From contig JBQMRQ010000100.1 in NCBI GenBank assembly GCA_052174535.1, positions 6,506 to 70,505 of the forward strand: 64,000 nucleotides of DNA, given 5' to 3'. Every line of letters starts with the position of its first letter. Positions within the stretch are counted from its first letter, which is position 1. This document shows positions 25,204-49,224 of this stretch, one piece after another. Both the position numbers and the translations under genes were made by a program. Origin of the DNA: Arsenophonus sp. NC-WZS1-MAG3. Lineage in GTDB: Bacteria > Pseudomonadota > Gammaproteobacteria > Enterobacterales > Enterobacteriaceae. The notes under the pieces were generated by a model. It did not search any database and was not told the DNA's origin. It saw nothing but the letters and a program-made list of their open reading frames with translations.

Positions 25204-25453
25204 AATAAGAGTATCAAGTTATATTTCAATCAGTTAAAACTTCTGTTAAAAGAAATAAGCATAAGATAATTTATCTTTAGAACTAATTTTAGTAAAACTA
25301 ATTGAACAATTATAATTAATTTCAGAATGATTTATCGAAAATTATGCTTTATTCATCACTAATCATCTAAAAATCGCTAAATAGATACCCAATCACCTTA
25401 TATACTCATAATAGTTTATGTATGTTTTATAAATTTTTATATTTGTTAATTAG

Positions 25454-26134: not shown

Positions 26135-27158
26135 TAATAAAACTCTCTGACAGTGATTTACCGCACAATAGCATAGATAAAGTTTCTAACTTTGGCCAAA
26201 TTGAATGTCTATAATCTTGTTTTAAATGTAATTCAGCATGGGTAATCAACTGTATTGCCAGATGTAGTTCTCGAAGTGATAAGCGTTGTAGTGCAGCGCT
26301 AATAAGCTGGCGGCGAGATTTCCAAATTTTATACTGATCAAATAATTTTTTTAAATCTTCATCGTTATTTTGTTGTGCTAATGTCAAAAGCAATATGAGT
26401 TCACGTTGAATTATACGTAATAAAATTACTACTTCATAATCTTCGCGTTGTAATTGCTGTAGAATATGCCAGACACGTTTAATTTTACCTTCAAGTAGTG
26501 CATCAACCCAATGATAAGGTGTAAAATTAACGGTATTATTTATCGCCTCTTTAACAGAAGGTAATGTAAGATTTCCATCAGGAAATAATAGTAATAAATC
26601 TTTAAGAACTTGGTTAAGAGCTAGTAAATTACCTTCATAACAGTAACAAAGAAGCTGTTTAGCTTGCCTATCTAAGGTAATAGACATTGCTTTTGCTCGT
26701 TGAGTTATCCATTGAGGCAATCTGGATTGTTCCGGTGTCAGACAATTTATATAGACCCCATCTTTGGCCATTTTTTTGCACCAGGCACTATTCTCTTGTG
26801 CTTTAGTTAATTTGCTTCCACATAATATGAGTAATAAATCAGGATGTAATAATTCAGCCAACTTAAATAGTTTTTCTCCTATAACAGCTGTAGAGCCACT
26901 TTTAGGAAAAATTAAAATAAGAATTTGTTGGCTAGCAAATAGGCTAAATGATTGACTAAGATGATAAATAGTGCTCCAGTCTAAGGCTTCATCTAGCGAA
27001 TAAGTATGGCATTCAGAAAAACCGTGCTGTTTGGCAACTTGACAAATTTTATCCATACTTTCTTGTAATAAAAGGGGATCATTGCCAAAAATCAGGTAAC
27101 AGGTTCGCAACTTATCAAGAAGCTGTGAAATTAACTGCTCTGGATAAATACGGATCAT
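26127..27158 (-). CDS. holA: DNA polymerase III subunit delta
   Basis: 343 aa. [39 protein letters not shown]. Confidence 0.96.
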
Positions 27159-27166
27159 TCTGAGTC

Positions 27167-27703
27167 TTAAAGCGCTTTCTCGGCAATCACTGATCCTTTA
27201 GGCTCATTATGAATAGTGATGTGCATGATTAGTAATTTCCGAATTAACTGACGAGCCACTTGTTCACGCATTTCTTGCTTAATAAGTTCGTTTTCGGCAT
27301 CTTTAGCTAATATTTCTAATGGATTTTCAAAGAAAGCGCGTTTGACATGAATTTTGATAGGATAAACTGTGCCGTTAGAGAGGATAATTTGCGCGCTGAC
27401 CCAGAAATTTAATTGTTTTTCTATACTTTTTCCGTCTTGATAGATTGAAACGGTTTTGATGTTTTCATATGAATCCACTATTTTTAATATAGGCACATTC
27501 TGAAGATTTTCATCAATTAAATTAATATTGTTTAAGCGCAATTGCTGTCTAATTGCACGTTCCAATGGGCCATAGGGATCAGCGCTACTTAATTTTAATG
27601 TTTTTAATTCTTCAGTTATCTTTGGCATGCTTTGTAAGCAAAATTTACAACTAGCCGTGATTAATACGGCTAAGTATAGAAATAATCTAATTAAATAACG
27701 CAC
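27167..27703 (-). CDS. lptE: LPS assembly lipoprotein LptE
   Basis: GTG start after an AAGGAG RBS gives MRYLIRLFLYLAVLITAS-C (lipobox), then DPYGPLERAIR. Lies between leuS and holA. Confidence 0.93.
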   Translation of the reverse strand: MRYLIRLFLYLAVLITASCKFCLQSMPKITEELKTLKLSSADPYGPLERAIRQQLRLNNINLIDENLQNVPILKIVDSYENIKTVSIYQDGKSIEKQLNFWVSAQIILSNGTVYPIKIHVKRAFFENPLEILAKDAENELIKQEMREQVARQLIRKLLIMHITIHNEPKGSVIAEKAL

Positions 27704-27722
27704 ATCATATCTCCTTATTATG

Positions 27723-30308
27723 TTAACCGACAATAAGGTTTAACAGCTTACCTGAAGCATAAATTACCTTATGAATGCTCATACCTTTAAGATATTTTGC
27801 CACACCATATTCTTGCATTGCTATAGCTAAAACAGCACCTTCTGATGCATTTATATCGATAGTAATACGCCCACGAACTTTACCATTAACTTGAATAATA
27901 ACTAATTTAGTATTATCTATTTTTATTTGTTCATCAGCAACTGGCCAAGGTGCATTATCAATATCTTCCTGGTGACCAAGTGCTTTCCACATGACAAAGC
28001 AAGCATGAGGGATAATAGGCGACAGCATCCGCACAATAACTTCTAAAGATTCTTGCATTAACGCCCGATCTTGTTCGCTATAATGAGAGGAGACTCGCGT
28101 CAGTTTATTCATAAATTCCATAATAGTAGCAATTGCAGTATTAAATGCATAATGCCGACCGATATCATCAGTTACTTTAGGAATAATTTTATGTAGATCA
28201 CGCCGTAAATTTTTCTGATCTGGCGTAAGGTTTCCTCTATCTAATAGAGATGTTTTACCTTTTTGCGTATGTTCAAAAACGGTGCGCCAAAGACGACGAA
28301 TAAAACGATTTGCACCTTCTACACTTGATTCTTGCCATTCCAAAGTGAGCTCTGGTGGAGCAGCAAACATCATAAATAAACGAACTGTATCTGCCCCATA
28401 TTTTTTTACCATTAATTGTGGATCGATACCGTTATTTTTCGATTTAGACATTTTACTCTTCCCAGAATAGAAGAGTTCATGCCCATCCTGATCAGTTGCT
28501 TTAACAATTTTACCTTTTTTATCTCGTTCAATCGTAACATGAACAGGTGACACCCAAACTCGTTGTCCATTTTTATCTAAGTAATAAAAAGAATCAGCTA
28601 ATACCATTCCTTGACATAACAAGCGTTTAGCTGGCTCATCAGAATTTACTAAGCCGGCATCACGCATCAATTTATGGAAAAAACGGAAATATAATAAATG
28701 CATAATGGCATGTTCAATACCACCAATATATTGATCAATCGGCAACCAATAATTAGATGCATTCGGATCTAGCATTCCTTGCTCATAATTAGGACAGGTA
28801 TAACGAGCATAATACCAGGATGACTCCATAAAAGTATCAAAGGTATCCGTTTCACGTAATGCTGCATAACCATTAATCTTGGTTTTAGCCCATTCTGGAT
28901 TGGCTTTAATAGGACTAGTGATCCCACTCATTACCACATTTTCTGGTAAGATGACGGGTAGTTGTTCTTCTGGTACTGCTCTGATAGAGCCGTCCCCCAT
29001 TATTAACATTGGAATAGGTACTCCCCAATAACGTTGCCGAGAAACACCCCAATCACGTAAACGATAATTAACTTTACGTTGAGCTGAACCTTGTGAAACT
29101 AGTTTATCAGTAATTGCATCAGCTCCTGTTTCGTTATTCATGCCAATTAATTTGCCTGAATTAATTAACGTATTTTTATCAGTTAACGAACCGGTTTTTA
29201 GATCGGGGATTTGGCCTTCATTATCAGTAATGATAGCCTTGATCGGTAAATGATATTTGCTTGCGAATTCCCAGTCACGCCGATCATGCTCTGGAACCGC
29301 CATTACTGCCTCTGTACCATATTCCATTAATACAAAATTAGCTACCCAGATCGGGATTTTTTTATTAGTTAGCGGGTGAATTGCAAATAAATTGGTGGCA
29401 ATACCTTTTTTCTCCATGGTTGCTATTTCTGCTTCAGCAACTTTGCTATTACAACTTTTATTAATAAAATCCCTAAGCTTAGCATTTTTTTCTGCCGCAC
29501 TTTTTGCTAACGGATGAGTTGCTGCAATAACGAGATAAGTCACTCCCATAAAAGTATCAGGTCGAGTAGTATAAACGGTTATTTTATCATCTTTATCTGC
29601 TAATTTAAAGGTAACTTCAACCCCTTCTGAGCGGCCGATCCAGTTACGCTGCATAGTTTTAATTTTCTCTGGCCAGCCATCAAGTTTATCTAAATTATTA
29701 AGTAACTCTTCAGCATAAGCAGTAATTTTTATAAACCATTGAGGAATTTCTTTACGCTCAATTGGAGTATCACAACGCCAGCAACAACCATCAATAACTT
29801 GCTCGTTAGCTAAGACTGTTAAATCATTTGGGCACCAGTTGACAGCAGAGTTTTTTTTATAAACTAAACCTTTTTCATAAAGCTTAATAAAAAACCATTG
29901 CTCCCAACGATAATATTCCGGTGTACAAGTTGTGACTTCTCGACTCCAGTCATAACCAAATCCGAGCATTTTTAATTGATTTTTCATACAATTAATATTG
30001 GTATAAGTCCAAGTAGCTGGAGCAGTATTATTTTTTACTGCTACACCTTCAGCCGGTAAACCAAAAGCATCCCAGCCGATAGGTTGCAGCACATTTTTGC
30101 CTAGCATGCGTTGATAACGTGAAATAACATCACCAATAGTATAGTTTCGAACATGCCCCATATGTAGCTTACCAGATGGGTAAGGTAACATTGATAGACA
30201 ATAGTATTTTTCTTTTTTATTATCTTCTATTACTTTAAATGTTTGTTTTTCTTCCCAATGACGTTGTACGTATTTCTCTATCTCTTCTGGTCGATATTCT
30301 TCTTTCAT
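27723..30308 (-). CDS. leuS: Leucine--tRNA ligase
   Basis: [35 protein letters not shown] at 30308 ([11 protein letters not shown]) preferred over the track start at 30350. Confidence 0.98.
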
Positions 30309-30574
30309 GCATGACACCGATATTCCTCCACTATGCTGATAATGTGGCATAAGTTGCGAACGATATAGCAGATTTAGATCTGCATAGAATAGCGAATAAA
30401 TACCTCTAATAACAAGTATTGATAACTATTTAACCGTGGAGTTAAATTAACTTTATTAATGCAAATGATGTATAGATTTAGATAGTAAAATTTTAGATAG
30501 TAGCCTATCCTGCTTTAGGCGCTATTTTAATATTATTATTTAATCGATTGGCAACTACTTTTATCATTCAATAA

Positions 30575-31050
30575 TGAATATTGATTTATATATGATCTTA
30601 ACAATAAATTTTTAGCATATTTTGCTATTAATAGCGCCGTAAAGAAATCATATTTATTGTTATTTTTAATAATTTCTTTCATCCAATAAAAATAATTCAA
30701 TGATAAACTTTTTAATAAATCCCATTTTGTTTGGTACCTATTATCATGGTTATTCCTTCATTAGCAAGTTTTACTGATCAGATAAACGTAGCTCATTATG
30801 AAATGAGCAGCTAAGCTACGCTACTTCTGGGATATTCATGAACAGAGTGTTCTTTTATACTCTGGGATATGTTAATTTTTTAGTAATTTAGCAAATGGTT
30901 CAAAATAAATATCCTTTAAAAGGATAAATTAGATAAATCAAGAAGACAATACACGAGAACTTTACATGTTTACTTCGTTTATTTATTTTAAGCATTTATG
31001 ATCTCCTTACCGGAATTGATTATGACAGACCAGCTTAATTTTTTATGATA
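30575..31050 (-). pseudogene. gltL: Glutamate/aspartate ABC transporter ATPase remnant
   Basis: Minus strand reads VKLANEGITMII...MGFIKK...LLDE, matching GltL VELANEGMTMMVV..EMGFARK...FMDE. Expected position next to leuS. 5' boundary uncertain. Confidence 0.6.
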
Positions 31051-31369
31051 CCAAAAGAGGCTATACAGAAATGCAGTGACCATGAATCAACGGTTCTTAT
31101 TTTTTCTTAACATGCAGTATCATCTGCCTCTATAGTCACGATTATCCTGGGTTTTTATCAATAACCCAAGTCATCGTTGTAACACTGAAACAACTACATT
31201 GAAGGTAGACTAAAGTCTATTTGCTGATAAATTCATCACTTATAGAGAATAGTGATAATCCCTGTTTCATTTCCCCCTAATGAAACAAATATAAAGATAA
31301 CTGGGCTGATAGTAACATAATGAATATGGGATAGGATAATGATTTTTATTTTCTTTGGTAGAGAGACCC

Positions 31370-33510
31370 TAGATGTTTTATTCACGCGCCCAAATAAATT
31401 ATTTTTTACTATTTAACGAAGGCTGGAATAAATTTCTTGAAAAACACCGTAAAAATCTCAACTCGGAAACACATTTGTCTGTTAAGCGAAACTTGCCTGC
31501 AGTACCTTGCGCCAAGGTATTCGTTAACACTGTTGTGAATTCTCCTGAATCTTCCCAGTTATATTGGCAAAGATTATTTATAGAAATCCCTTATACTGTA
31601 TGAAGAATTTTCGCTACAGAGGTTAGAATGAAAAAGCAAGCAGCCATAAAGATCAAAGAGACTATTTCCTGACTCCATAGTAACATAAATTGCATCTTAT
31701 TAATTAAGATCAGTGATATTATGTTGAATTATATTCAATAATACATTGAAGAAAGTTATTCTACTTTATTTTTCCTATGTTATGATAGTTAACATATTCT
31801 CCGTTCAGGAGATTCATTATAGTTACGATATCACTTTAAAATCCTTGATTGCAAGAAAACATTTATCAATATTACTACAAGTCAGTCATATGGCAAAACT
31901 ACATCAGAAGGATAAAAAGTTTAGTTATCTACTATGTACGTTGAATAACTTGACTATAGAGGATCCAGCAAAACAAATAGGAATTAATTTGAAACAGCGC
32001 TTAGAATTAGCGTCATTGCTTTTTATTTTAGCGGAGACAGCCAACATAAGCGCATTAAATAGCATTATTGACGTGAAAAATATTTTTCCCTGAATCCTTT
32101 AAAAGGAAGCGTTATATTTCCATATGGGAAAGGTAGAAAATGCGGAAGAGTAGGAGATAAAAGGAAAAATAAATTCCGGACTTAATCACCAGAAATTAAT
32201 AGAATCATTGTGAGTGATGAAATTATTGAATAGTTTGATGCGTAGTATATTAGCTGTATCTTAAGCCAATTATCGATAAAAACTTCATCCTTTAATTAGA
32301 TGGAGTTAAATATTATGAAACCTTTGTTAGCGAGTACGAAATTAATTACTATCACTTAACAAGGTCGGATAACTAGATAATTATTAATAAGAAATTACAC
32401 ATTCAAAATATGAACAGTTATATCAGGCGATCATTAAAGATGGGTAAGTAGATTCTGCAGTGAATAGTCGTTTTATTTACTGAATTAGCTGATCTTAATA
32501 AGATTCTTTGAATTACAAAAATTGAAATATAAATATGCTATAAATTGTGCTGCGAGCAAAGCAGCAACTTTTGCTAACATAGGTAAATTCCCACCGCCGT
32601 TTTTTCTGCTATTTCTCTAAATCAAAATCCTATAGCTCATGCTGCATCAAAACTAACGAGCAAGTAGTTAGCAGCGCAGGTTTATATTTTCCTGACTGCA
32701 ACTAGCAATACATTATTTAACTATTATTTCATTTTCTTTATCCTTTTTAACAATAATTGGCTACCACTCAATCCTCTGTTTCTCGCCACTGCTGGGTTAT
32801 ACTACAGTAAGCACGCAAACAGGGTATTGAAATTGCTATCTTCATATACCTTTTATACTTATGGTTGACAATTCAATCAACATCTTCATGTTCACCTCTC
32901 CGTTAGTCTGTAGAAGCCTGAACATTAAGAATATTACATGGCATAAGCTACTCTTAAAAAAATAGAGGGCAAAAAATTTAGCAAGGCGTTGTTGGTATCC
33001 GGCTAATAGCCGTACAGTAATAACTTAATAAATCCTAGTGTTTCCTGATCTTGAGAATATCTGCGTCAGGAAGCAACGACAAGGTTATACCTGAAGGCAT
33101 AATTCGAATGTTACTGGAAAATACACACTTCATAAAAAGATAAAAAGGGTATGACATAGTATAAATACTTCGTACACTACTTTTAAATTACCCTCAGTAT
33201 CCGCGTAAAAACTGCGGCATTGCTGATTGGGGCGGGTTGTGCTTCATTACTATGAAGCACTTCGGACTAAAGCAGTACTAGCAGAAGTCCTTAACGCAGG
33301 AATAAATGATCAGTCGCCCTATTATAGGCATAATTCGGTAAGGCCTGCTAAGATGGTACGTTATTATGATTTATAATTGAATCGTAAACAAGGGTATATG
33401 GCTATTACCAAAATATTTAAGACCTTATAAAGAGGCCTTAAAAGATAACACAGTTTTTAAAAAAACAGAAAACCGAGGTTTTCTGTTCTGATAAAAGGAT
33501 TTTCTGCGCG
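31370..33510 (+). mobile_element. IS91-family (HUH rolling-circle) relic, interrupted by IS1595 and truncated by IS256
   Basis: NEGWNKFLEKH...LSVKR.LAC (31410-31500), RFFC...KSK (32600), FFNNNW (32745), YTYG*QFNQHLHVHLSV (HUH, ~32855-32905), KYFVHYFKLPSVSA (Y2 motif, ~33165-33205), KMVRYY (~33355), RGFSVLIKGF (~33475-33505). Confidence 0.85.
31557..32584 (+). mobile_element. IS1595-family relic (copy 2), nested in IS91
   Basis: IRs agttatattggcaaag / cttttgctaacataggt. Flanks atcttccc / aaattccc (6/8 TSD). 1028 bp. AKLHQKDKKFSYL in the track ORF 31746-32093. Confidence 0.88.
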
Positions 33511-34708
33511 TTAATGCGCAGCTCTAAGCCATAACTGGACAATATGCTAAACGTGTCTTCTCGACAGGCGTTACGTCATCATCCGTAATAGTGTTTGCTA
33601 CAACAAGTCACACAGACTACCATTGCAATTTTAAAATTAAAGTGACTAAAATGGGTTAAGGTGCCATTCTTGCAACGGCAACAAAAATATGCTTTAAAAA
33701 GTAATTATCATTGTCTTATCTGAAGCTTACAAAAGCAAAGCAAAATGCTAGCGCATAGGCTTATATCTGCAAGGCAGATTCATCGGTGATTTTTACGAAT
33801 CTCTGTGGAGCTTTTTAATAAAAAGCACGTGATTTCTCTGCAAGGTAGTTATACCATACCAGAAGACTGAAATAGAAATGTCTTGAAGAGCAAAAGCAAT
33901 GGCAGCTACCTAATTTAAGCGATACGCGTTACATTTCTTTTCTGAAGATATACGCCGGCATGTTTAGGCAGCTAGGTGATCGCTTTTACTTGCTGATTAC
34001 TATTAGCGTCACTACACATTGACGTAAGAAGGGGAATTCATTGCGGTCAAAAGATAGTTATTAAAAATTAAAGGGGGAACTGGGGCGAACTTCTGGATTG
34101 ACACAAGCGCGCAGTTTAACTGCATCTCTAGGTTTACTATAGGAGACGGTGCTTTTGGTTTTTATAATGCAATGGCAAATATTCCTAAGTACGCAGTACC
34201 AATGTTGGTGATATATAAAATAGCTAATGCACTAGTTTCGTTTCCTAATGGTATACAAATAAAAGTTAAGAGTGAGGCTACTGGAGTTTTGGCTAACAAA
34301 AAGCTGTGATGCCTGCAATAAAATCTTTAATATTTTATTGGAAATAGGTTTCAGCGAATATCTTGTGGGGATGAAGAATCTGGAGAAAAAGCAAGAAGAA
34401 TGGCTGGCATATTATGATATCCTGTTGCCACTGTGCATCAATAAGAATGACGAATTCGATTGAATCAGCTTTTGCAAAAATTAGGTTATGAAACTGATGC
34501 TTGAAATACTATAGTTCGAGAAAATAATCCTTTCAATGGTATTAAAGCTATTCCCATCTTCTCAAAAAAATTGAAAACTGGCTAAATAGGGGTTTAAGTT
34601 TTTAAAAATGATAGCAACAACATCAAATTTTAAAAATCGAAAATAGATTCACAAAGCATCAAAGTATAAGATAGCATAAACACTATACATCAGATTTGCT
34701 AATAACTA
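33511..34708 (+). mobile_element. IS256-family relic (copy 6), left ~220 bp missing
   Basis: IGDGAFGFYNAMAN (~34140), NDEFD*ISF (TTNPIESAF-like, ~34445), right IR catcagatttgctaataact. Confidence 0.85.
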
Positions 34709-34760
34709 TAAATTAGGGGCAACTCCAGTATTTATTTTTCTGTCATAACTGCAAAAATAA
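34709..34760 (+). pseudogene. mutM: MutM (Fpg) zinc-finger C-terminal remnant
   Basis: aaattaggggcaactccagtatttatttttctgtcataactgcaaaaataa resembles KLGQRSTFFCxNCQK*. Convergent with coaD as in enterobacteria. Confidence 0.65.
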
Positions 34761-34781
34761 ACTTAAATATAACTCATTTTA

Positions 34782-35261
34782 TTATTTAATTTTCTGTAAC
34801 ATTGTTTTCGCTATTAGTTCTGGTAAAAAAGATGAAACATCGCCGCCATAGCGAGCAACTTCTTTAATTAAAGAAGAGGAAACAAACGATAATTTTAGAG
34901 AAGGTAATAAAAAAATGGTTTCCAAACCAACCATTAGTTGGCTATTCATATTAGCCAACTGACATTCATATTCAAAATCTGACACAGATCGTATACATCT
35001 AATCAAAATATTTGCCTTATGTTTTTTCGCAAAATTTGCCGTAAGCTCACAAAAGCTAGTTACTTCAACATTAGTTATATGTTTTGTTTGTTCTTTAGCA
35101 AAAGAAATACGTTCACTTATGGTAAACATAAGATTTTTATGCGAGCTATCAGAAATAGCCAATATTATCTGTTCAAATATTAATGAAGCACGTTCTATAA
35201 TATCTAAATGACCATAAGTTATGGGATCAAAAGTACCAGGATAAATTGCTTTTTTTTTCAT
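34782..35261 (-). CDS. coaD: Phosphopantetheine adenylyltransferase
   Basis: 159 aa. [41 protein letters not shown]. Confidence 0.97.
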
Positions 35262-35465
35262 AAAGTTATTTTCACTAATTATCGTCTTATTTAAGCATAT
35301 TAAATAATAATACTGATAAACTAAATATTATTATTCACAATAATATCTATCATTTATTTTCTATTAAAATAAATGATAATTACTATTGTATTTTTAGTTA
35401 ATTATTAATTTAACTTTAACTAGTAAATAAAATATAAAAAATTTTTTTCTTTAATAATAGTTATT

Positions 35466-35714
35466 AACTTATGCTTATTTTATATAAGAGTTTTCGGAAA
35501 TGGGTGGTATCGTATCCTCTGATCATTGATTTCATAAATGATCTCAACAATTAAAGATGAGATGATATGTTATGAAAAGTCTACTTTACAGAAATCTATA
35601 AATAAAAGATTATTCTGATCCTTTTCATGAACTCTCTTCCGTTAATGTTCATAAGACAGCTAATAAGCACCGCGTGTTAAGGGTGATCTTGAAATCATAA
35701 TGCTGCAACAATAT
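35466..35714 (+). mobile_element. IS256-family left-end fragment (copy 7)
   Basis: Left IR-like aacttatgcttattttatataagag, start atgaaaagtctactttacag, DYSDP.HEL. Stops abruptly where copy 8 begins. Confidence 0.8.
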
Positions 35715-36989
35715 GAGTTATTAGTAAATAGTGTATAGATAGTCAGGGCTCTCTCTCACCTCACTCTGAGATTTTGTAAATCTTCTCTTCGCCCTTTTAA
35801 TATTGGATATTGTTTAGCGCCATTGTCAGTAAGTTAATTCCTTTAGTCTGCTCTAGCTATCCTGAGCAGACGGAAGCAGTTTCAATACCATTAAAAAGAT
35901 TGTTTTCTTGAACTACAGCCGATTTATAGGTCACTATCGCAAAATCCGATTAAATCGAATTTGTTGTTTTTATTGATGCCACAGTGCGATAACGGAAAAT
36001 TATAGAATTCCAGCCATTCTTCTCGCTCTTTCTCCAACTTCTTCATCACTAGATGAAGCTGAAAATCTTGCTAACAAAATATCAAGGGCTTTATTAACTG
36101 CATCTCTCTACTAATATAGCTGTATAGATCTCCCGCAATCACCATTAACTTTCGGTGTTGCATGCCTTTAGTGGGCGAAGATAATACATTAGCTACATTA
36201 TGTATCTAATAACATTAGTTCTACATATCTAGGAATATCTTTTCTATTACATTCCAAAAGCCAATGGCACCAGCTCTCCATAGCAAGCTTAAAGATACGG
36301 TTAAGTCCCCCGACATTACAGGGTAATAAAAGTTATATCCAAGTGCATTTCAATTTTTGATAATCATTTTTGACTACAATGATCTCCCACTTTATATCCA
36401 TATATCCATGCAGTGATATCGATAAATTAAAGCAGCAGGTAAAAGCGATCACCTGCCTAACAACATAGTATAACATTTGCCAACAAATATAAACGTAGCG
36501 ATATCACTTATAATCAAACAAAACAGCATTCCCTATGCCCTTTTCAAGGTATTTCCGTTTCACTATGTTGATGGGTCTTCTCTTCGGGAGAAGACATCCA
36601 TACGATTTTTACAAAGAAGCTCTTATTGGAGCTTTATAAAAATTACTGGTAGAGAAACTATTTAATGTTTTTTGCATACTTCAGATAAGGCGACGCAAGA
36701 AGTTTTAGAACGTATTCCATTGCCGTTTTAATTCTAACCTTAGGCGATTTAATTTCAACATTGCCAATACCAGTCTATATTGTTAATTGTGACAAATATC
36801 CCCCTAGAAATGAGTTCATGCAAGAGATAAGAATAATATCTGATTTTTGCGGATAACTGGGATAACTGTAGTAAAGTAGACTTTTTATGGTATATAACCT
36901 CTCTATTATTAACATTATTCACGAAATTAATTAATATAATAGAGAACAGCATCTTACAAAACTTGATACACCAGAAATAAGCATAACTC
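35715..36989 (-). mobile_element. IS256-family relic (copy 8), with internal deletion
   Basis: IRs gagttattagtaaatagtgtat / atacaccagaaataagcataactc. 1275 bp. Confidence 0.85.
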
Positions 36990-37051
36990 CTTTTATTATT
37001 CACTATTACAATTTTAAATAAAAATAACCAGTAAAATAGATTCTACTTTCA

Positions 37052-38893
37052 TTAAAGTAATCGTTCAATTAAACCACTACGACGTTCTGTAGACGTCATT
37101 AATGCTTTAGTAAAAATATGACGCTCAGCATAAATCGTCAGTTGACTTTTTGCTCTAGTAATTGCAGTATAAATAAGCTCTCTACTAATAATAGGGGTAA
37201 AAATTGGTGCTAAAATCAATGCGACATGTTTAAATTCTGATCCTTGAGATTTATGTACCGTCATAACAAAAGCAGTTTCATGCTGAGGTAAACGACTAGG
37301 TTGTATTCTTTTTATTACTCCATTAGGTAATTGAAAATAAGCTTTTAAACCTTGTTGACCATCCTGTAACATAATACCAATATCACCATTAAATAAACCA
37401 ATCGGACGATTATTTTTGGTAATCATAATTGGGCGACCTTCATAGTTTTTACTCCAATTATAGGCTGGCCGTTGAATACTTCCTTGACTATATAAAAGCT
37501 GTTCTAATTTATCATTTAACCCTATAACTCCGTATGGTCCTTCCCTTAAAGCAGCTAATAAGCGATATTGATTAAAACTATTCAGGATCTCTTCAGGATC
37601 TCGACCACTTTTTATCATATCCAAATAGCAACGGTAGTATTCAGCAGTATCAAAAAGCAATTGAGTATATTTTTCAGGCGAATTAATTGAATTAAAAGTA
37701 ATATCAGTATTTTGTTGTGTTAATAATTTCTCAACATTTCTAATATTACCCTGATTACTTGCAGTAGCAAGTAGGCCTATTTCTGATTTGGAATCAAAAC
37801 GGTAATTCTTACGTAATAAGCAAAGACTATCTTTTATCTTTGGCCCATCATTCGAGATAAAATCAGATAAGTCACAACCTGTGATTTTAGTCAGTTGCGC
37901 CGCTCTTTCTCGACTATATCCTAATTCTAAAAAACGACAAAGATCCCCAAAGACAGCACCCGGTTCAACGGAAGCTAATTGATCTTTATCACCTAGCAAA
38001 ATAAGACGCGCATGCTCAGGTAGAGCTTCAATTAATCTTGCCATCATGGGCAGATCAATCATAGATGCCTCATCAATTATTAAAACATCTAACAAGAGTA
38101 GATTATATTTATGATAACGGAATAACTGGCTATTGAGTTGAGCACCTAATAACCGATGCAAAGTCTGTGCTTGTTCTGGCATAATTGCATACTCATCGGC
38201 AGATAAATTTAGTTTTAATAATGCATTACTTAACGATTCTGTTAATCTAGCCGCCGCTTTTCCTGTTGGTGCAGCTAGTTGAATAATTAATTTTTTATCA
38301 CTTAATTGGACTAAAGTAGCTAATAAATATGTTATCGTCGTGGTTTTACCTGTACCCGGTCCACCAGAAATAACAGCAATCCGACTGGTTACTGCAACTG
38401 CAACAGCTATTTTTTGCCAATCTTGCCTTTTCGAAGATGTAAAAAAACGCGTTAAAATAATCGCTAAACGCTTTTCATCAACAGTTTCTAATAAATTACG
38501 AGAAAAAAAGTCAGCCACTAACCCTTCATCAGCCCACATTCTCTGAAAATAAAGTTTGTTATCTGATAACACTAATGGTTTTGCTACAGTTTGCGATGCA
38601 TCACAAACTGCATTACATTGTTTAAGCTCAATATAAATCCTGCTATTATCCGGTGCTCCAACTTTTTTCCAAAGCATAAAAACTATCTCAGCCTGTCTAC
38701 CTTCAAATAAATAACCTAGTTGAAGCTTATCAATAAATAAGCAAACATGCCCTGCTTGAGTTTCAGCACTCAATATTGCGAATATTAATAATAATAATGG
38801 GTTTTTATCATCGACTAACCGAATAGCAAGTTGTATATCTAAATAACTAAACAAATTAAGCTTAACAGCTTGTTTTAGTAAAGTTATCATCAT
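37052..38893 (-). CDS. recD: Exodeoxyribonuclease V alpha subunit (RecD helicase)
   Basis: 613 aa uninterrupted. SGGPGTGKTTT, APTGKAAARL, DEASMID, GDKDQLASVE, TVHKSQGSEF, RELIYTAITRAK. Confidence 0.97.
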   Translation of the reverse strand: MMITLLKQAVKLNLFSYLDIQLAIRLVDDKNPLLLLIFAILSAETQAGHVCLFIDKLQLGYLFEGRQAEIVFMLWKKVGAPDNSRIYIELKQCNAVCDASQTVAKPLVLSDNKLYFQRMWADEGLVADFFSRNLLETVDEKRLAIILTRFFTSSKRQDWQKIAVAVAVTSRIAVISGGPGTGKTTTITYLLATLVQLSDKKLIIQLAAPTGKAAARLTESLSNALLKLNLSADEYAIMPEQAQTLHRLLGAQLNSQLFRYHKYNLLLLDVLIIDEASMIDLPMMARLIEALPEHARLILLGDKDQLASVEPGAVFGDLCRFLELGYSRERAAQLTKITGCDLSDFISNDGPKIKDSLCLLRKNYRFDSKSEIGLLATASNQGNIRNVEKLLTQQNTDITFNSINSPEKYTQLLFDTAEYYRCYLDMIKSGRDPEEILNSFNQYRLLAALREGPYGVIGLNDKLEQLLYSQGSIQRPAYNWSKNYEGRPIMITKNNRPIGLFNGDIGIMLQDGQQGLKAYFQLPNGVIKRIQPSRLPQHETAFVMTVHKSQGSEFKHVALILAPIFTPIISRELIYTAITRAKSQLTIYAERHIFTKALMTSTERRSGLIERLL

Positions 38894-39790
38894 TCCTCAT
38901 CTTAATTAGTTACCTTAATTAGTTACATTGAATAATTCATCTATGCTATTACTAAACCTATAAGGTGGAATAGTATTTTGCAAAAAAAATACCATAACTA
39001 AGATTGCTTGTATACAAACCCACAACGTAAAAATATAGATAATACCACTAAAATATTTTTGTAATCATCATTAAGGCAAATAATTTTGTAAAAAATATGG
39101 ATAGCTAATATATAAAGCTAATACTGTAAATCATATGCATGATCAATCATGGCATTCTGTATTACCTTCATTCCTAATCAGACCTTTTTCCTCTAACTAA
39201 CTTAATTTATAATCAAGCAAATAAATTTATTTTGCCAGAAAAAACTAAATCAATTTAATTTTTTAAAATGCCATTACTGGCACAAAACTAAGTGATTGGG
39301 AACGCTTAAGATAAAGCATCATATATTGATTGTCTGCATTGTCTAATGCAGATTGCAAGAATTTTTCTATTAAAAAATTTTTTATTTAATTGATATTCAG
39401 ATCTATTCTTTGACAAGTTAAACTATCTTTAAGTAAATTAGTATCAAAATATTTATTAGCCACATTTTAAGCACCGGGGAATCTAATCATCAGAAAAACC
39501 AAATTATTTTAATCTTCAGCTATCTAAGACTCTTATGGATATTGATTAAATACGAGTAATTCTAACAGGAAATATAAAAAAGTTTCTACTGGTAGCACCC
39601 CTTAAGAAAAATATGAACACCTCCTATTTTAGTCTTTTACCTTAAAGCAATAAGTTATAATTTGCACATTAGCATCTATTTTAGATATTAAAGATTGTAT
39701 AATAATATCAATATTTATATCACTAGCACTGAACACTTATTAAATAATGAATTCATATTATAAATATGATAATCCTGAATACCTAGGTTA
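38894..39790 (-). pseudogene. recB: RecB C-terminal (nuclease domain) remnant
   Basis: HIFLKGAT..FLYFLLELL.FNQ, IDLVF...YLLDYKLS*L and NAMIDHAYDLQY*LYILAIH match RecB FPRG..PGTFLH, FIDLVF..YYLLDYKSNWL and AMQAHRYDLQYQLY. Many stops. The 5' three quarters of the gene is absent. Confidence 0.85.
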
Positions 39791-39988
39791 ACCCTCCAGG
39801 TATTTTAGATCTACCTATAAAATTTCAAGTTAATAAGTTCACAACTTTACTCTACTTAATGTACAAAAGAAATAAAATATTATTAATAATAACATTTAAA
39901 TATTATGAGATCATATCTCATTCAATAAATAAAATAGTGATACCTAAATTAAACATCACTATTTTATTGTATAATTTCTCTGACGTAT

Positions 39989-41479
39989 CTATATAAGTTT
40001 TAATAAAATCCAGTAAAACAAACCAGAAAGTATAATAGAAATAGGTAATGTAAATAACCAAACTAGTAATATACTTTTAATTGTTTTAGCTTGTACACCA
40101 CCACCATCAACAACCATTGTTCCTGCTACAGCAGAAGATAAAACTTGCATTGTTGATACAGGCATACCAGTATAACTTGCAACACCAATGGAAACTGCAG
40201 CAGTAACTTGAGCAGAAACACCTTGTGCATAAGTCATACATTTTTTACCAATTTTTTCACCTATTGTTATAGAAATACGTTTCCAACCAATCATAGTCCC
40301 TACAGAAAGCGCTAAAGCAACAGCAATAATAATCCACAGTGGTGCATATTCCACTGTATTAAGTAAATCATTACTCAAGTTACGCAGAAAACGTGCATCC
40401 GAAGAGGATGTTTCTGATAGTTTAGCTACATCTAATGCTGTATCAGATAAACACATTAATAATCGACGCATTTGATTACGCTCCTCAGGTTTTAATGCGG
40501 AATAACTTTGAATATTTGCTAACATCAGTGATGTCTGTCTTAATACAGTAATAGGACGTGAATTATCACAATGAAATTTCTCATCTAAAATTTTCAATTC
40601 TGACTTATATCGTGACGACATATTAACAATATATTTTACCGCTGACTTATGCTCTTCATAATAATGTTGTAAATGCACCATTGCGTCATAGGTACGCGTT
40701 ATATTATAACCATTAGCATTCATATTAAGCACAAATCCAGCAGGTGTTACTCCGATTAACACCAGCATAATAAGACCAATACCCTTCTGACCATCATTAG
40801 CACCATGGGAAAAACTGACGCCAACGGCAGATAAAATTAATGTAGTACGTGTCCAGAAAGGGGGTTTCTTTTTACCATTTTTCTTCTCTCGCTCATCTGG
40901 TGTTAAATGAACACGACGACGTTTTTTCGTACCACTCCAATAACGGCGTAAAAAGAAAATTAACAATCCAGCTATAATAAAACCAATAGCAGGAGAAAGA
41001 ATGAGAGAAAGAAAAATTTCAATAACTTTTGGAATGTTTAATGCATCTACTACAGAGGAGTTGGTCACTAATGCATTGGTTAAACCAACACCAATAATAG
41101 CGCCTATTAATGTATGTGAGCTAGAAGCTGGTAATCCTAAATACCAAGTACCCAAATTCCAAATAATAGCCGCTAACAGCATAGAAAAAACCATTGCCAG
41201 GCCATGAGCAGAACTTACGTTAAGCAGAAGATCTGTTGGCAATAAATGCACAATAGCATAAGCAACACTCAAGCCACCTAAAATAACGCCAAAAAAGTTA
41301 AAACCGCCAGCCATAACAACTGCAAATTGAGCTCGCATAGCTCGAGTGTAAATAACCGTTGCTACTGCATTTGCGGTATCATGAAAACCATTAATTGCTT
41401 CATAAAATAGCACAAATAATAGCGCTAGCGTTAATAAGAGACCGGTATAAAAATCCAATCCAGTAAATAAATGTAGCAT
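39989..41479 (-). CDS. pitA: Low-affinity inorganic phosphate transporter
   Basis: 496 aa. [53 protein letters not shown]. Confidence 0.96.
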
Positions 41480-41645
41480 AAACCTTAAGCCAATTTGTTG
41501 AATATGAATTCAATATATTATCAGTGATAAACGTTATCGGTGGAAGCAAAATCTACATCTTTTTTGACTTTAATTGACAAAAAAATAAATAAAAAATATT
41601 CTTTACTTTCATTAAGTTAATAAAATTAAAATATATGGATTTCTT

Positions 41646-41913
41646 GTAATATGCTTGCAAAGATTGTTGCTTTGTTCTCATAGAGATTTATAAGCACGTC
41701 TATATTTCAATTGTTGTGGTTTTAAATAATCTATTTTAGGCTAGATAATTCGGTAAATAAAATAACCCTATACTATGGATCAAGCTTATGTATCCTTTTA
41801 ATTAGCTAATATAACTATTTACATTTTGAATGTGGAATTTATTTCCAATAACTCTCTGATTATTAAGGCTTATTATATGATAATAACTAATTTCATGCTT
41901 GTTAAGAAAGGGT
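41646..41913 (-). mobile_element. IS1595-family 3' fragment (copy 3), cut by IS256
   Basis: Aligns by eye with 57354-57620 (tcctttaattagctaatataactatttacattttgaatgtgg = rc of HIQNVNSYIS.LKG). Ends at the IS256 left IR. Confidence 0.8.
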
Positions 41914-43265
41914 GAATTATGTTAATTCTGATATATAGGTTTTTGAAAATAGCGATGAGGTATTCTACTAATTGATTTCATGAATGATTTTAATCAGAGA
42001 GATGATATGTTATGAACAGTCTAGCTTACAGGGATCTGTGAAATGAGATATCATTCTAATTCCTTCCATGAACACATCCATAATAATAAGTTCCAGATAG
42101 CTGATAACAACACCGTTGAAGGTAAGCTCTAAAGCATGCTGCAATAACATCCTGAACGAGACTTTATCGGCAGCTCATGCCGTTATCTGTAACAGTTATT
42201 TGCTACAGAAAATCATATAAACTGCTATCTCCAATGTTAAAATTAAAGTACCTAAGGTAGAAAGGGATCATCACGCATCATCGACAGCAAGCATGGTTCA
42301 AGAGCTTATTGCTATCGTATTATCTAAGCGTGCAAAAAGCGGCGAATAGTTGTTACCATAGCTATACTTCCAAGGCAATTTACCGATCTACTGGTGATTT
42401 TCATAAAATCATGATGTCGTTTTCCTTAGCAAAAAATACATGGTCTCTCTGTCAGCAGCATTGCAGATCGCAGATATAAATAGCTTGAAAACATAGGCAA
42501 TGGGTAGCTGTGTGATTTAAGGGATACTCGTTACGTTTATTTTTAGCCAATGGCATAACCACTTTATCAGGTAAGCTGATTGCCTTTACCTACTGCTCAT
42601 TATCGGCATAATCTTCATGGACATAAGGAGCTCATTTCGCTCGAAGAGAGTTATTGAAAGTTAGAAGCAAACTGGGATAAACTTTTTAATGGCTGGTAAG
42701 CGCGTTGCTTAACCGTATTTCCTAATCTTGTTACAGAGATGTACCCCTTGGTTTTTGGAATGCAATGGTAAAGATATTCGTGGACATGTAGAACTAACGT
42801 TACTGGATACATAAAATAGGTAATGCACTACCTTTACTCCCAAAAGGTAGCCAATTGAAAATTAAAGTTAAACTGCAGGATAAGAGTTATGGCTAGCAAA
42901 GAGTCGCGATGCTACTAAAGGCTTTGATACTTTTTTGATGATCTTTTCAGTCAAATATCCTGCAAGCGATGAAGAAGCTGCAGAAAGATGGAGAACAATG
43001 ATTATCACTCTATAACTTCTCTTCAGCGCACTTGGCATCAATAAGAACAACAAATCCGATTGAATTCGCTTTTGTGATAATGATCCTATGAAGCTGATGA
43101 CAAGGACTGTGACTCAAGAAACAACCCCCTTTTTCAATGGTATTAAATCTTCTCCCGTCTTCTCAAAAAATAACTGAAGATAAAGAGATTTAAGCTGTTT
43201 ACCCTTTTGATAAACAGCACAAAGATGACATAAGTAAACGGTAAAAGAGCAATCTAAGTAATCTC
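41914..43265 (+). mobile_element. IS256-family relic (copy 9), right end eroded
   Basis: Left IR gaattatgttaattctgatatatagg, KVPKV..RD, and TTNPIEFAF (aacaacaaatccgattgaattcgc, ~43050). Confidence 0.85.
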
Positions 43266-43293
43266 TCCGCTTTCTTCTGATCTTAGAAAGGTT

Positions 43294-44699
43294 GAATTAT
43301 GCTCATTTTCTGTGTAAGGTTTTCAAATATACTGACGTATCTTACTAATTAGTTTCGTAAATAATTTTCTCAATAGAGAGATGATCTTCCATGAAAAGTC
43401 TACCATACAAATGTCACGAAATAAAATTACTTTATTCCCCTTATATTAACTCATATGTAATGTCCACTAGAAAATGGATAGCACCGTTATTCAGGCGAAA
43501 TTCAAGTCATGCTGGAATAACATGCTGAACTCCCTTATCGGAAGGGGCCCCGGCCTGCTACACCAATGTTTATAACAATTATTTACCATAGCGAACCCCC
43601 ATATATAATAGTATTAGTGATGTTGAGATTACAATGCTTAAGACCAGAGGGGGTCGCAGTGGCAACAGAATATACTTCAACAGCTTCTTGCTGCCGCTTA
43701 TCTAAAGCGTGCAAAAGCACCGAAAAGTTATTATCATGCCCTGTATATGCGCAGATATTATCTTACCGATTATTTTACAAAGCCATGATGGCGTGCTTAT
43801 CCCTGAAAAGTACATAATCTCTTTAGTAGTACCTATTAACAGACCGAAACAGTAATGCCCTGAAGAGAATTCACAATATGGGTACCTTACGTGATTTAGC
43901 GATACGCCTAACGTTTATTTCTTAGCTGAAAACATATGTTATTCTGTAATACAAGCTAATTACCTCCTTCTGCTAATTATATTGGCAGTGCTGCGCATGG
44001 ATGCAAGGAGGCTTCCTTGCGGTAGAAGATGATTATTGAGAATCAGAATCAACCTAGAGAGGTAACTTTCAATGACTAATAAGCACGGATCTTAATCGTA
44101 TTTCTCAAATTTGCTACGGGAGACGGTGTTTGGTTTTGTGGAATGCAATAGTAAAGATATTCCCGAGCATTTAATGCCAACACTGTTGGATACATAAAAT
44201 AGCTAATGGTACCGCCTTCACTCCCTAAAAGCATTCAATATAAAGTTAAAATATGAAGTGAGCTGCAAAAAATTTAGCTAGCAGAAAGAGAGTCACGATT
44301 CCTATAATAAAGCCTTTAATGCTTTGTTGGTAAGATTTTCAGGATATCATTCAGGGATGAAGATCCTAGAAAAGAGCGAGAAGACCTGTTGACATTCCTA
44401 TGACTTCCGTAAATACACTGGGAATCAATAAGAATAAAAAATTTGATTGAATCAACTTCTTCAGCAGTGATTCTATAGCTGATGCGTGAAGCGTAAAGCA
44501 ACTGTGGCTAAAGAAAATAACCATTTCAATGATATTTAACTTGCTTTCGTTTACTAAAAATAGCTGGAACCGAGCTAAAGAATTTAATTTGCTGACACTG
44601 GTGGTAAACAAGATCCAATTTAAGGATGGATAATAGATTCATGAAGGATCAGCATGGAATGTAGTCTGACCATCATAGATCAGATTTATCATTCTTCTC
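43294..44699 (+). mobile_element. IS256-family relic (copy 10), tandem with copy 9
   Basis: Left IR gaattatgctcattttctgtgtaagg, FATGDG (tttgctacgggagacggt, ~44110), right IR catagatcagatttatcattcttctc. Confidence 0.85.
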
Positions 44700-45169
44700 T
44701 AATTGAAGAATGATGTAATAGTTCGAAATATTAAAATATTAATACTTACTTTTAAGCGCAGTATTTAGCTAAATTTATAATTTAGCATTAACATGAATAT
44801 TATTCAATATATATTTCACTGATTTTAATTGATTCAGAAACATTAATGTTTTTTATTAATGATGTTGATTTACTTGAATTTTAGAATCACTATAGATGGT
44901 GATAACCTACTCTCTTTGAGATCTATCGAACAATTAGCAAGCACATGGAAATTGTTCCATACTATTTAGAAACTTTTTAAAATTATTAATAGTTCTTATT
45001 TAAAAAAAAAAGCTAACAACATAATCTATATAAATTAATATAAGTTTATTTTTAAAATATAAATTTTATAAAAAATATCATTAACTAAATTTTATGATGA
45101 ATATCAATAAACAAGATAAAACCATATAATCGGCGGTTAAAAACATGATAATAATTAATATATGCTAAA

Positions 45170-46699
45170 TTAATTGGTTTTTTTTCTTAAAAATATCAAT
45201 ATGATAAATAGAGCAACTAATCCCCACATAGGCCAGTTACTCCAACGTGCATAAGGTGTAAGACCAGATGTCGGTGTTACCTCAGCGCTTAATACTGAGC
45301 GAGTAAATTGAGGAAGCTCTGCCTGAATATCTCCATTAGGTGTAATCACTGCGGTAACACCATTATTAGTAGCACGCAATAATGGCCGACCAAGTTCAAG
45401 TGCACGCATGCGCGCCATTTGAAAGTGTTGCCATGGGCCAATAGAATGCCCAAACCATGCATCATTTGAAACTGTCAATAAAAAATCGGTATCTGATTTA
45501 AAGTTATCTCTAACTTGGGTGCCTAAAATAATTTCATAGCAGATAGCGGCAGTCAGATTAATATTTCCAGCAGTTAACTGCTGTTGCTTATAATTACCAC
45601 GACTAAAACCTGACATTGGTAAATTAAATAAAGGGGCAATTGGCCGAAGAATATTTTTTAATGGCACAAATTCACCAAAAGGTACCAAGTGGTGCTTCTG
45701 ATAACGATTGCTAGTTGGATATTGATAAGGTTTATTTTCTCCTAACACAATAATACTATTAAAAAAATTGCTCACTCCCCGTGTACTTACTTTAGCATCA
45801 ATAATCCCAGTAATTAAGTGAGTATTTTGTGAGCGTAGCAGATTATCTAATGAGGTCAGCCAAGCCTTATTATCTGATTCGATTGAGGGAATAGCGGACT
45901 CAGGCCAGATAACGATTTTAGCGTTACCAAAATAAGGTTTAGAGAGATCGAGATAGATAGTTATAGTTTGTTCTAGAAATCCTGGTTGCCATTTTAAATT
46001 TTGCAGAATGTTACCTTGAACTAAAACAATTTGTGTTTTTTTTTCTGTAACTGAAGTAAACCATTGATAATTTTTAATTATTAAAGGTAAAAATAATAAA
46101 ATAATTGCTGAAATTAGAGGAACAACTCGGCGCTTTAGGCAAGCAAAAACTAAGCAGCTACTAATAATAATCAGTAGAAATGTTATCATCTCAACACCAA
46201 ATATTGGTGCGATGGCTTTTAGTGGCCCATCGATTTGACTATAACCAAATTGTAACCAAGGAAAACCAGTTAGTATACAACCACGTAAATATTCAGTTAT
46301 TTGCCATATTACTGGCGCTGCAAAAATAAAACGAGTAATATTAATCCGTGAAAAAAAATGATTGAGTAGATAAGCAAATAATGCAGGATAAAGTGATAAA
46401 TACCCTGCTAGGAATATCACTAAAAAGACATTAACCACCAATGGCATACCACCAAAATCAGCGATACTGACATAAATCCAGTTAATATCACTACCAAATA
46501 AACTAATTCCCCAACAAAATGCTATTAAACTTGCTTGTTTGCTTGAACGATTAACAATTAGCAATTGTAACCCAAAAAGAGAGAAAAGACCGGCCAACCA
46601 AATATCAAAAGGTGAAAAAGCCAATGTTCCACAAAGCCCGAAGATTGAGGCAAATAAGACTCTTAACCTCTGACGTTGATAGAGTGGAGTTTTATTCAT
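45170..46699 (-). CDS. lnt: Apolipoprotein N-acyltransferase
   Basis: 509 aa. [48 protein letters not shown]. Confidence 0.97.
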
Positions 46700-48119: not shown

Positions 48120-49185
48120 TAAATATTTCCTTTTCTATAAGGCGCCTCTCTATGAGGGCTCTTTTATTAACAAAATAACTGTTTTATTTCTTATTCTTTT
48201 TCCTAGTTTTAGTAAACAATAACCACTTTATCACTACAGGATGCACTACATCATCACTATGAAAAAATAAAAACTAAGTTTTTTAATTTCAGAAAACACT
48301 TCAATTGCCTAGAATAAACCTGATTTATAGGCACTAATCAGATCAATTTTAGTTACATCATCTGGTGTTTCATGATCACGATTTTAGAGTTAAAATCAAT
48401 AGACGCATCAGAAATATTTTATCTATTTAATTGTGGTATTCTGATTTTTATTAAGAATGAAAATCTAATTAAAGATGCAACTTTGCATATATGACTAATG
48501 GTGGGTGCTACTTCAATTACATTTCGCGTTCAATCAATTTTTTTACTTTTTCAAAATCCAGCATTTCAAATAAGGCTCTCTTTATATCAAGGAAGCTATA
48601 AATAAAGATTAACTTTTTTGACTGAAATCATCTAGCAAAAAACTGAGTTTTTGCCGACCTTGACAACGGGGCAAAGTTAGTAGACTACAACTATTTATTT
48701 ACGTTCTAAAGCATAAATTGCAACAACTACAAAATAGATTTTATCTAGTTCTTTAGAACCAATTTCGAAAAAAAATATCATGCTCTATATATTAGCAATA
48801 TATTAAGGCTGATTACCGCATATACTGTTGATAACATACCGTTTGATTTTAATATTTTCAAATTTGTCATAACTACCAAACATTTTAACAAATTGCTCAA
48901 GAAATTAATTTTCTATTATAAATAAGTGGATTTATTCAAGGATAATGCCACATACAAGAGCTATATTAACATATAGTCAGCATAAAATGCTGCTAACTGC
49001 GTTAATATTAAGTGGTTTATCAATAAATTTATCTCAGTTATTTTAAGATTGATTTGAATACCTAGCCTGTCTGTGCTTAAACTACTTTATATTATTATTG
49101 AATAGCCTAAGAAAGACTAATTAACTGTTGATTATCGACTAGCTCTAAAAATATTTCGCTGCTGAGAATTTATAGATTATTTTTT
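48120..49185 (-). pseudogene. ybeZ: PhoH-family ATPase pseudogene
   Basis: EIFLELVDNQQLISL and ALFEMLDFEKVKKLIER..IEVAP match YbeZ. Full-length footprint with many stops. Confidence 0.85.
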
Positions 49186-49224
49186 GGAGTTATTGAATCT
49201 CAATATTAATATTAAGTTTAGTAA

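Follow-up and report, generated by a model that had tools for sequence, protein, structure and literature searches.

The window analysed here is a stretch of 64,000 nucleotides (C100:6506-70505, on a contig of 76 kb) from the genome of Arsenophonus sp. NC-WZS1-MAG3. Between leuS and lnt it holds a block in which coaD with a mutM tail, recD with a recB relic of about 1 kb, and pitA lie amid dead insertion sequence (IS) relics. The block quite probably arose by IS256-mediated duplicative relocation into an IS256 that already lay in a dispensable gene, gltL, followed by reciprocal loss and erosion. The process is of a known kind, namely rearrangement of a decaying symbiont genome by IS; what makes the case informative is the combination of duplicative transfer and reciprocal loss. 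This reading is carried by the structure of the block, a target duplication, duplicate copies of cargo DNA, an IS junction shared between copies, the distribution of the block over one clade, and purifying selection on the cargo.

The gltL insertion site and its history

The block splits gltL, and the 3' and 5' relics of the gene stand at its opposite ends. A first-pass annotation of the window had placed the block between gltL and lnt and in place of gltKJI. Nine other Arsenophonus genomes have lnt, a lone gltL and leuS in succession, without gltKJI, and two reduced lineages have leuS directly after lnt. Among the genomes compared, gltI, gltJ and gltK adjoin gltL only in Providencia. Because gltKJI was already absent from the locus across Arsenophonus, the block did not replace it, and the insertion target was an orphan gltL. 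The earlier proposal of relocation by IS into a dispensable site thus stands as to the IS and the dispensability of the gene, but the target was a single orphan gene and not an operon. The orphan gltL lies about 200 bp downstream of lnt and is intact in the other Arsenophonus loci L010, L012-L016 and L025, with 79-84% identity to E. coli GltL. Several Arsenophonus species retain this intact ABC ATPase gene at the lnt-leuS locus where gltIJK is absent.

The boundaries are clearest in NEOnobi (G005), in which the block is best preserved. Its left end reads leuS, gltL[201-241], IS91 with IS1595 inside, gltL[90-181] and a full IS256(+). The middle holds mutM' and coaD, an IS256(+) fragment and an IS256(-), then recD, a recB pseudogene (aa 67-1146) and ptrA', and another IS256(-). 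The right end consists of pitA, an IS1595 fragment, a full IS256(+), gltL[4-94] and lnt. The cargo unit is thereby bracketed by two direct, full-length IS256(+) copies at gltL codon ~92. On the left, the gltL flank closes with ...CAATAATTG(T), on the right it opens with TAATTGATAG, and intact gltL holds CAATAATTGATAG only once. TAATTG(A) or ATAATTGA is present on both gltL flanks and single in intact gltL, with one substitution per copy. IS256 makes target-site duplications of 8-9 bp, and the flank repeat is a 7-8 bp target duplication of this type. In the focal window, too, IS256 relics lie at the two block ends (Table 1).

The IS91 relic is full length in G005 and G003, and in both, gltL codons 90-181 and a full IS256 stand between it and the cargo. 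Since this part of gltL intervenes, IS91 is a separate, independent insertion in gltL. One-ended rolling-circle capture of the cargo by an IS91/ISCR element was rejected on the same arrangement in relatives. A genomic island, an integrative and conjugative element (ICE) and an integron were likewise rejected as sources: the block has no integrase open reading frame (ORF), no tRNA gene at its boundaries and native GC content, similar to that of the remainder of the window, and its cargo is orthologous to native Arsenophonus genes. No ORFs were found in the block beyond coaD, recD, pitA and those in the IS relics.

Six relatives' assemblies contain the block (NC-TX2, EOPcoel, NC-CH8, NC-PE1, NEOnobi and AFZbadi), four of them in full on single contigs of 275-317 kb and two more in pieces. 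In a tree of Lnt, CorC, YbeY and UbiF that included the block-bearing genomes and other Arsenophonus, all seven genomes with the block group together with support 100/99, and the A. triatominarum/A. nilaparvatae group is the sister of this clade. Outgroups keep lnt-gltL-leuS and six relatives carry the block, which places its formation on the stem of the block-bearing clade, as an old and real event. A shared order among relatives had been named in advance as a possible refutation. The six closest relatives do share the block and the outgroups keep the ancestral order, and this only dates the event. An assembly or binning artefact at repeats might be suspected in a repeat-rich draft of 142 contigs. 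Such an artefact is extremely improbable, since the block repeats are 62-86% identical to one another, too diverged to collapse, and the same order recurs in the four independent assemblies with long contigs, each with lineage-specific erosion. Misassembly, which had been raised for the locus, can be set aside.

Donor loci, duplicate copies and the order of events

The cargo segments occupy separate loci in outgroups, which bears out the earlier claim that they came from three distant places. A. nasoniae has tcdA-amiC-argA-recD-recB-ptrA on one contig (also mapped as recC-ptrA-recB-recD-argA) and uspA-uspB-pitA on another. A. triatominarum carries recC-ptrA-recB-recD-argA on a single contig; its mutM-coaD-waaA and gltL are 47 kb apart. 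The cargo segments still carry the tails of their old neighbours mutM, ptrA and uspB, each cut by an IS256 end. In all clade members the IS256 right end (34707 in the focal window) joins mutM ~40 bp before its stop, and the uspB tail on the pitA segment, lost from the focal genome, is seen in relatives. The units were not the single-gene cassettes that had been proposed: recB-recD moved with a ptrA tail, coaD with a mutM tail and part of the waaA spacer, and pitA with a uspB tail. Their present single-gene look is the result of later erosion.

Every member of the clade has an intact recB elsewhere and a stop-riddled recB beside recD, and the outgroups have a single recB-recD pair. The intact focal recB (C98:12009-15605, a 1201-aa open frame) stands beside a deleted recD. 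At both recB copies, the junction of an IS256 right end with the ptrA 3' end falls on the same nucleotide, ~345 bp before the recB start. The shared junction means that the insertion predates the duplication and that an IS-bounded unit was copied. At the donor recB locus, IS256 pieces replace recD, beginning ~8 bp past the recB stop. The second line of evidence comes from coaD. About 65 bp of coaD-waaA spacer (the last ~65 bp of 35262-35431) are found both in the block and at the waaA locus (C35), with a derived ~10-bp insertion, absent from A. triatominarum, in each copy. The donor spacer continues without a break past the position at which IS256 adjoins the block copy; the copied piece therefore exceeded the present remnant, and the loci were trimmed independently. 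A look for IS256 scars at the donor loci had been suggested. Such scars are present at recB/ptrA, in the pieces that replace recD. At waaA, the DNA in place of coaD (C35:1717-2557) belongs to a fourth repeat family, which has ~110 copies.

The recB duplicate and the spacer present at both loci argue that the moves were duplicative and were followed by reciprocal loss. The survivors in the block are coaD, recD and pitA, and those at the donor loci are recB and waaA. IS-mediated inversions are common in young symbionts, and inversions or translocations by recombination between dispersed IS could instead have carried the segments to gltL conservatively, with deletions then removing their neighbours. 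The ~820 IS relic pieces on 30% of the genome and the dispersal of the recC/ptrA/recB/recD/amiC locus, now spread over several contigs, fit this scenario. It predicts no duplicates, however, and is at odds with an intact recB and a recB relic that share an identical IS256 junction and with the spacer copies. Direct bounding IS256 within a retained target duplication would also be unexpected after inversions. Conservative scrambling is thus very unlikely to account for the block.

For IS256-mediated duplicative relocation, we infer the following order of events and candidate routes. While IS256, IS1595 and IS91 were multiplying in a burst on the stem of one Arsenophonus clade, an IS256 would have inserted in the orphan gltL with an 8-bp target duplication. 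Further IS256 copies would have landed in dispensable neighbours of useful genes (mutM, ptrA and uspB). The IS256-bounded segments mutM'-coaD-spacer, ptrA'-recB-recD and uspB'-pitA would then have been copied into the gltL site, by composite transposition or by homologous integration of excised IS256-bearing circles. Both routes yield direct IS256 at each end within one target duplication and are therefore indistinguishable here. The cell would have become diploid for the copied segments, and random inactivation and IS-mediated deletion would have left coaD, recD and pitA in the block and recB and waaA at the donors. Finally, all transposases would have died, and later deletions would have trimmed the block differently in each descendant. 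Selection for the relocation itself is not needed and finds no support.

A plasmid could also have served as the carrier, with the segments first captured on an IS256-rich plasmid that integrated by recombination with the IS256 in gltL. This would account for the duplication, the clustering of three unlinked segments and the direct IS256 within one target duplication. IS relics and the three chromosomal segments make up the G005 block to the last base, which leaves no space for replication, partition or transfer genes, and the stretches without explanation in G003 hold no ORF >83 aa. A plasmid or cointegrate intermediate is accordingly given very little weight.

The first-pass annotation had pictured useful single genes relocated as IS-bounded cassettes into a dispensable operon, and an adaptive version of this idea would have tight cassettes gathered there for advantage. 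In its favour, IS relics lie within 28-75 bp of the retained ORFs, the three cargo genes are co-oriented with the flanks, and coaD is essential in E. coli. The units once held more than one gene or a gene tail, however, and their tightness comes from later, relative-specific deletions. Islands between IS relics are typically short in this genome, and co-orientation of three units is expected by chance at about 1/8. The surviving copy also looks arbitrary: recD survives in the block and recB at the donor, and elsewhere in the genome the dut copy survives away from dfp, which survives at the donor. Rescue of genes for advantage is therefore highly improbable.

Several points weigh against IS256-mediated duplicative relocation. 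No second-copy remnants of pitA, mutM, argA or uspAB were found, so that the pitA and mutM moves would be duplicative by analogy only. The whole block occurs at one site only, and movement as a unit is not demonstrated; the recB sub-unit with IS256 at the identical junction is present at two sites, and empty gltL sites occur only in outgroup species. The juxtaposition of three unrelated segments is explained solely by the argument that the site was a safe harbour. The genome has neither an intact IS256 nor a functional transposase of this family, the longest ORF among 205 near-full-length relics being 143 aa, and mobility of the element is no longer demonstrable. Pairwise comparison of IS256 copies is saturated, with identities of 62-77%, and sister copies, including the two bounding ones, do not resolve.

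Layout, erosion and function of the block

The host genome is 2.34 Mb in size with a GC content of 31.5%. The window Lnt shares 96% identity with Lnt of 'Arsenophonus sp. NC-TX2-MAG3'; against Lnt from A. nasoniae, A. triatominarum and A. nilaparvatae the figure is 85-87%. On these identities the window belongs to a degenerate Arsenophonus insect symbiont. Genes were mapped by tblastn with E. coli K-12 proteins from four relevant loci. The E. coli queries missed the mutM tail and the argA, uspA and uspB relics, for which Arsenophonus queries and nucleotide alignments were needed. All mapped genes of the block and flanks are on the minus strand. The flanks keep enterobacterial order on both sides, as had been described: mrdBA-rlmH-rsfS-nadD-holA-lptE-leuS on the left, and lnt-corC-ybeY-ybeZ(pseudo)-miaB(pseudo)-ubiF-three tRNAs-nag on the right. 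The phoH-like ybeZ and miaB are pseudogene fragments, and nagC is likewise in pieces (window 48226-49454 and 55235-57247). The rlmH and rsfS products (window 22985-23726) are just 37-38% identical to the E. coli proteins, and these genes are fragmented in relatives.

The content of the block agrees with the earlier description of coaD with a mutM tail, recD with a recB tail, and pitA among IS91, IS1595 and IS256 relics (Table 1). Consensus mapping gives one IS91 split by IS1595, a second IS1595 fragment and exactly five IS256 relics. The recB tail upstream of recD and the gltL pieces at both ends of the interval give weak but specific tblastn matches. The gltL 3' relic matches GltL aa 187-216 (E = 3e-4), and the focal recB relic matches A. 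nasoniae RecB aa 928-1202 at 35%. The gltL 5' end and its spacer (window 44695-45185) are 76.6% identical in nucleotide sequence (nt) to A. triatominarum over 504 bp.

Table 1. Features of the leuS-lnt interval and its flanks (window positions), and decayed second copies elsewhere in the genome (contig positions)
Feature	Position	Strand	Basis or remark
mrdB, mrdA, rlmH, rsfS	19943-25204 region	-	tblastn
nadD, holA, lptE	25454-27733	-	tblastn
leuS, intact, ancestral left flank	27723..30350	-	875-aa ORF, 71% to E. coli LeuS, full length
gltL 3' relic (codons ~180-241; relic itself ~30586-30773) with ~63 bp native downstream DNA	30523..30773	-	75% nt to A. triatominarum gltL 3' end
IS91-family relic, two pieces (30803-31505, 32588-33509)	30803..33509	+	Consensus mapping; Pfam Y2_Tnp, Zn_Tnp_IS91
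IS1595-family relic nested in the IS91 relic	31560..32589	+	NF033547 E = 1.2e-19; IS1/IS1595 zinc domain E = 5.6e-11
IS256 relic, left block boundary, 5' truncated (consensus 259-1449)	33510..34707	+	Consensus mapping
mutM 3' tail (last ~13 codons) and mutM-coaD spacer	34708..34781	+	Alignment with A. triatominarum mutM-coaD
coaD, intact, sole genome copy	34782..35261	-	159 aa, 55% to E. coli CoaD
Native coaD upstream DNA, part of coaD-waaA spacer	35262..35431	none	
IS256 5' fragment (consensus 18-295)	35432..35715	+	Conserved in G002-G005
IS256 relic (consensus 30-1406, internal deletion), left end 28 bp beyond recD stop	35762..37023	-	
recD, intact, sole full genome copy	37052..38893	-	613 aa, 49% to E. 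coli RecD, 80% to A. nasoniae
recB pseudogene, 3' ~1 kb, decayed duplicate of C98 recB	38912..39888	-	74% nt to C98:14636-15606
Native DNA downstream of pitA; focal-specific deletion junction at 39888	39889..39988	none	
pitA, intact, sole genome copy	39989..41479	-	496 aa, 68% to E. coli PitA, 92% to A. nasoniae
Native pitA upstream DNA	41480..41642	none	89% nt to A. nasoniae pitA locus, continuous through the stretch
IS1595 fragment (consensus 835-1096)	41650..41911	-	Conserved in all clade members
IS256 relic	41968..43219	+	Orthologous to G002 'a' (86%) and G003 'a' (79%)
IS256 relic, right block boundary, right end adjoining gltL 5' relic	43293..44687	+	Consensus mapping
gltL 5' relic (codons 1-97), then native gltL-lnt spacer to 45169	44695..44984	-	
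lnt, intact, ancestral right flank	45170..46699	-	509 aa, 59% to E. coli Lnt
corC, ybeY, ybeZ and miaB pseudogenes, ubiF, three tRNAs, nag genes	after 46699	-	
atpA, second copies	C39:37791-42096 vs C39:51202-55535		
feoB, second copies	C72 vs C57:34504-37469		
frdB/sdhB, second copies	C40 vs C86:6280-9180		
aceF, second copies	C102 vs C69:26495-29150		
def, second copies	C48 vs C68:152066-153153		
ftsX, second copies	C19 vs C2:51884-52601		

Comparison with the relatives separates the original structure from later damage. The orthologue of the left-boundary IS256 is full length and abuts gltL[90-181] in G003, G004 and G005. Its truncation in the window is part of a later deletion common to the focal genome and EOPcoel (G002). 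Lost in this deletion were the 3' end of IS91, gltL codons ~98-179 and the left IS256 up to its nt 258. A layout in which coaD would sit between complementary halves of one IS256 (33510-34707 and 35432-35715) was rejected on the full-length left copies. A second deletion, specific to the focal genome, brought recB codon ~860 up against DNA that lies 100 bp downstream of pitA; the 5' part of recB, an IS256 and the uspB tail were lost with it. G002 and G003 retain this IS256 and the uspB tail, G001 retains recB aa 13-749, and the recB relic of G005 is nearly full length.

Between pitA and the gltL 5' relic, EOPcoel, NC-CH8 and NC-PE1 (L039/L041/L042) have ~5.8 kb more than NEOnobi. The extra DNA consists of an IS256(-), an IS1595 fragment and decayed DNA of no assigned family, between two direct IS256(+). 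The site seems to have been used again in these three genomes. Most of the extra DNA has been lost from the focal genome.

The three cargo genes are single-copy and intact in all seven block genomes. Ratios of nonsynonymous to synonymous substitution rates (dN/dS) are 0.25-0.31 for coaD, 0.24-0.30 for recD and 0.12-0.22 for pitA, with similar values for lnt and leuS. These ratios point to purifying selection and to functional cargo genes. RecBCD is complete, with recB (C98), an intact recC (C28:22036-25413) and the window recD on three contigs, each between IS relics. A scenario in which RecD outlived RecB and acts alone was rejected, given the intact recB elsewhere in the genome. Both coaD and pitA retain ~165-170 bp of native upstream DNA. 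The focal recD lies 1.1 kb downstream of pitA on the same strand; no terminator-like site was seen between them in the focal genome, and the two may form a new transcription unit (window 38912-39988). A promoter scan returned more sites in shuffled sequence than in the real one and is uninformative on expression.

IS decay, duplicates across the genome and known systems

Intergenic DNA in the window is repetitive, with 30 to >200 further copies in the genome at only 66-75% identity. The IS families were identified from majority consensus sequences of decayed copies, which were then mapped back onto the window. The IS91 consensus matches Pfam Y2_Tnp (E = 1.4e-16) and Zn_Tnp_IS91, and the IS256 consensus matches Transposase_mut (E = 3e-18). 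Across the genome there are 458 pieces of IS256, 211 of IS1595 and 152 of IS91. The near-full-length relics are ~72% identical to consensus (maximum 86%), and none of the 348 across the three families has an ORF >161 aa. The IS256 consensus has a GC content of 40% and the relics a mean of 34.5%. In the same genome pairs (G002/G003/G005), orthologous IS256 relics have diverged further than the recB relic, with 72-79% vs 86% identity for the focal genome and G003. Quicker GC-to-AT decay of the formerly GC-richer IS could explain the extra divergence; gene conversion and alignment error are alternatives.

Short unique islands between IS relics are the rule genome-wide and are not peculiar to the block: the median unique stretch is 2 kb, and 59% of stretches are <2.5 kb. 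The genome has the IS load, pseudogenes (ybeZ, miaB, nagC and gltL), low GC content and split recBCD of a host-restricted symbiont in IS-driven decay. A second case of duplication with reciprocal loss is seen in dfp/dut. An intact dfp stands beside a dead dut at the old locus (C2:71025-72552), and an intact dut with a dfp 3' tail (73% nt identity) is found on a small contig (C107:1-671, also C126 and C130). Decayed second copies with 65-78% nt identity are also found for the intact genes atpA, feoB, frdB/sdhB, aceF, def and ftsX (Table 1), and at least seven housekeeping genes outside the block have decayed duplicates. After IS masking, 88 low-copy duplicate segments remain, among them rRNA and tuf, and perhaps genes of phages or plasmids. 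A genome-wide phase of copying followed by decay is a tentative extension of these cases. An IS256 burst would have duplicated many core segments and left the chromosome partly diploid, random complementary loss, rather than inversion or translocation, would have been a main source of scrambled synteny and split operons in the clade, and dead, IS-filled pseudogenes such as gltL would have been safe harbours for the redundant copies. A literature search returned no paper on the block-bearing clade or on IS256 in Arsenophonus.

The block invites comparison with composite, or compound, transposons such as the IS256-flanked Tn4001 and the IS10-flanked Tn10, in which two copies of a single IS enclose the cargo. 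As in these elements, a direct IS256 pair brackets the cargo with a 7-8 bp target duplication outside, and the layout recurs in the sub-units IS256-coaD-IS256 and IS256-recD-recB-IS256. Unlike in composite transposons, the cargo is core housekeeping rather than accessory or resistance genes, and the donor copies are lost, so that the block copy is the sole functional one. The transposases are also dead, and the block has a single site and is fixed in the whole clade. The translocatable units of IS26 move by circle excision and re-integration by recombination. They share with the block direct IS repeats around DNA inserted at a pre-occupied IS site, with the original target duplication kept. 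IS256 is not known to use the conservative route of IS26. The corresponding route for the block would be recombination of the RecA type, which the sequence cannot separate from composite transposition.

IS expansion, rearrangement, duplication and deletion mark the recently host-restricted Sodalis pierantonius SOPE, Serratia symbiotica, Shigella and Bordetella pertussis. The Arsenophonus genome resembles these in its massive IS load, many pseudogenes, broken synteny and IS at breakpoints. It differs in that its burst is long over, with all near-full-length relics dead, and in that its fossils record individual duplicative moves with reciprocal loss. Duplication with reciprocal gene loss is also seen in yeasts after whole-genome duplication and in Hodgkinia lineage splitting. 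There, too, redundant copies decay complementarily and part former neighbours, as with recB vs recD and dfp vs dut here, whereas in Arsenophonus both copies lay in one bacterial chromosome and came from IS-bounded segmental copies.

The early decay of symbiont genomes is usually told as IS bursts, inversions and deletions, and single steps are rarely recoverable. Here one relocation can be read base by base, from its target duplication and shared IS junction to the remnants of former neighbours and a dead duplicate next to its live partner. The reading corrects two views of the locus, in that RecD did not outlive RecB and gltKJI was not replaced by the block. It suggests that core and even essential genes can move by a duplicative route with reciprocal loss, which would split pairs such as recB-recD and dfp-dut without an interim loss of function. 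If this holds generally, duplication followed by decay would alter how synteny breaks and pseudogene counts are read in young symbionts.

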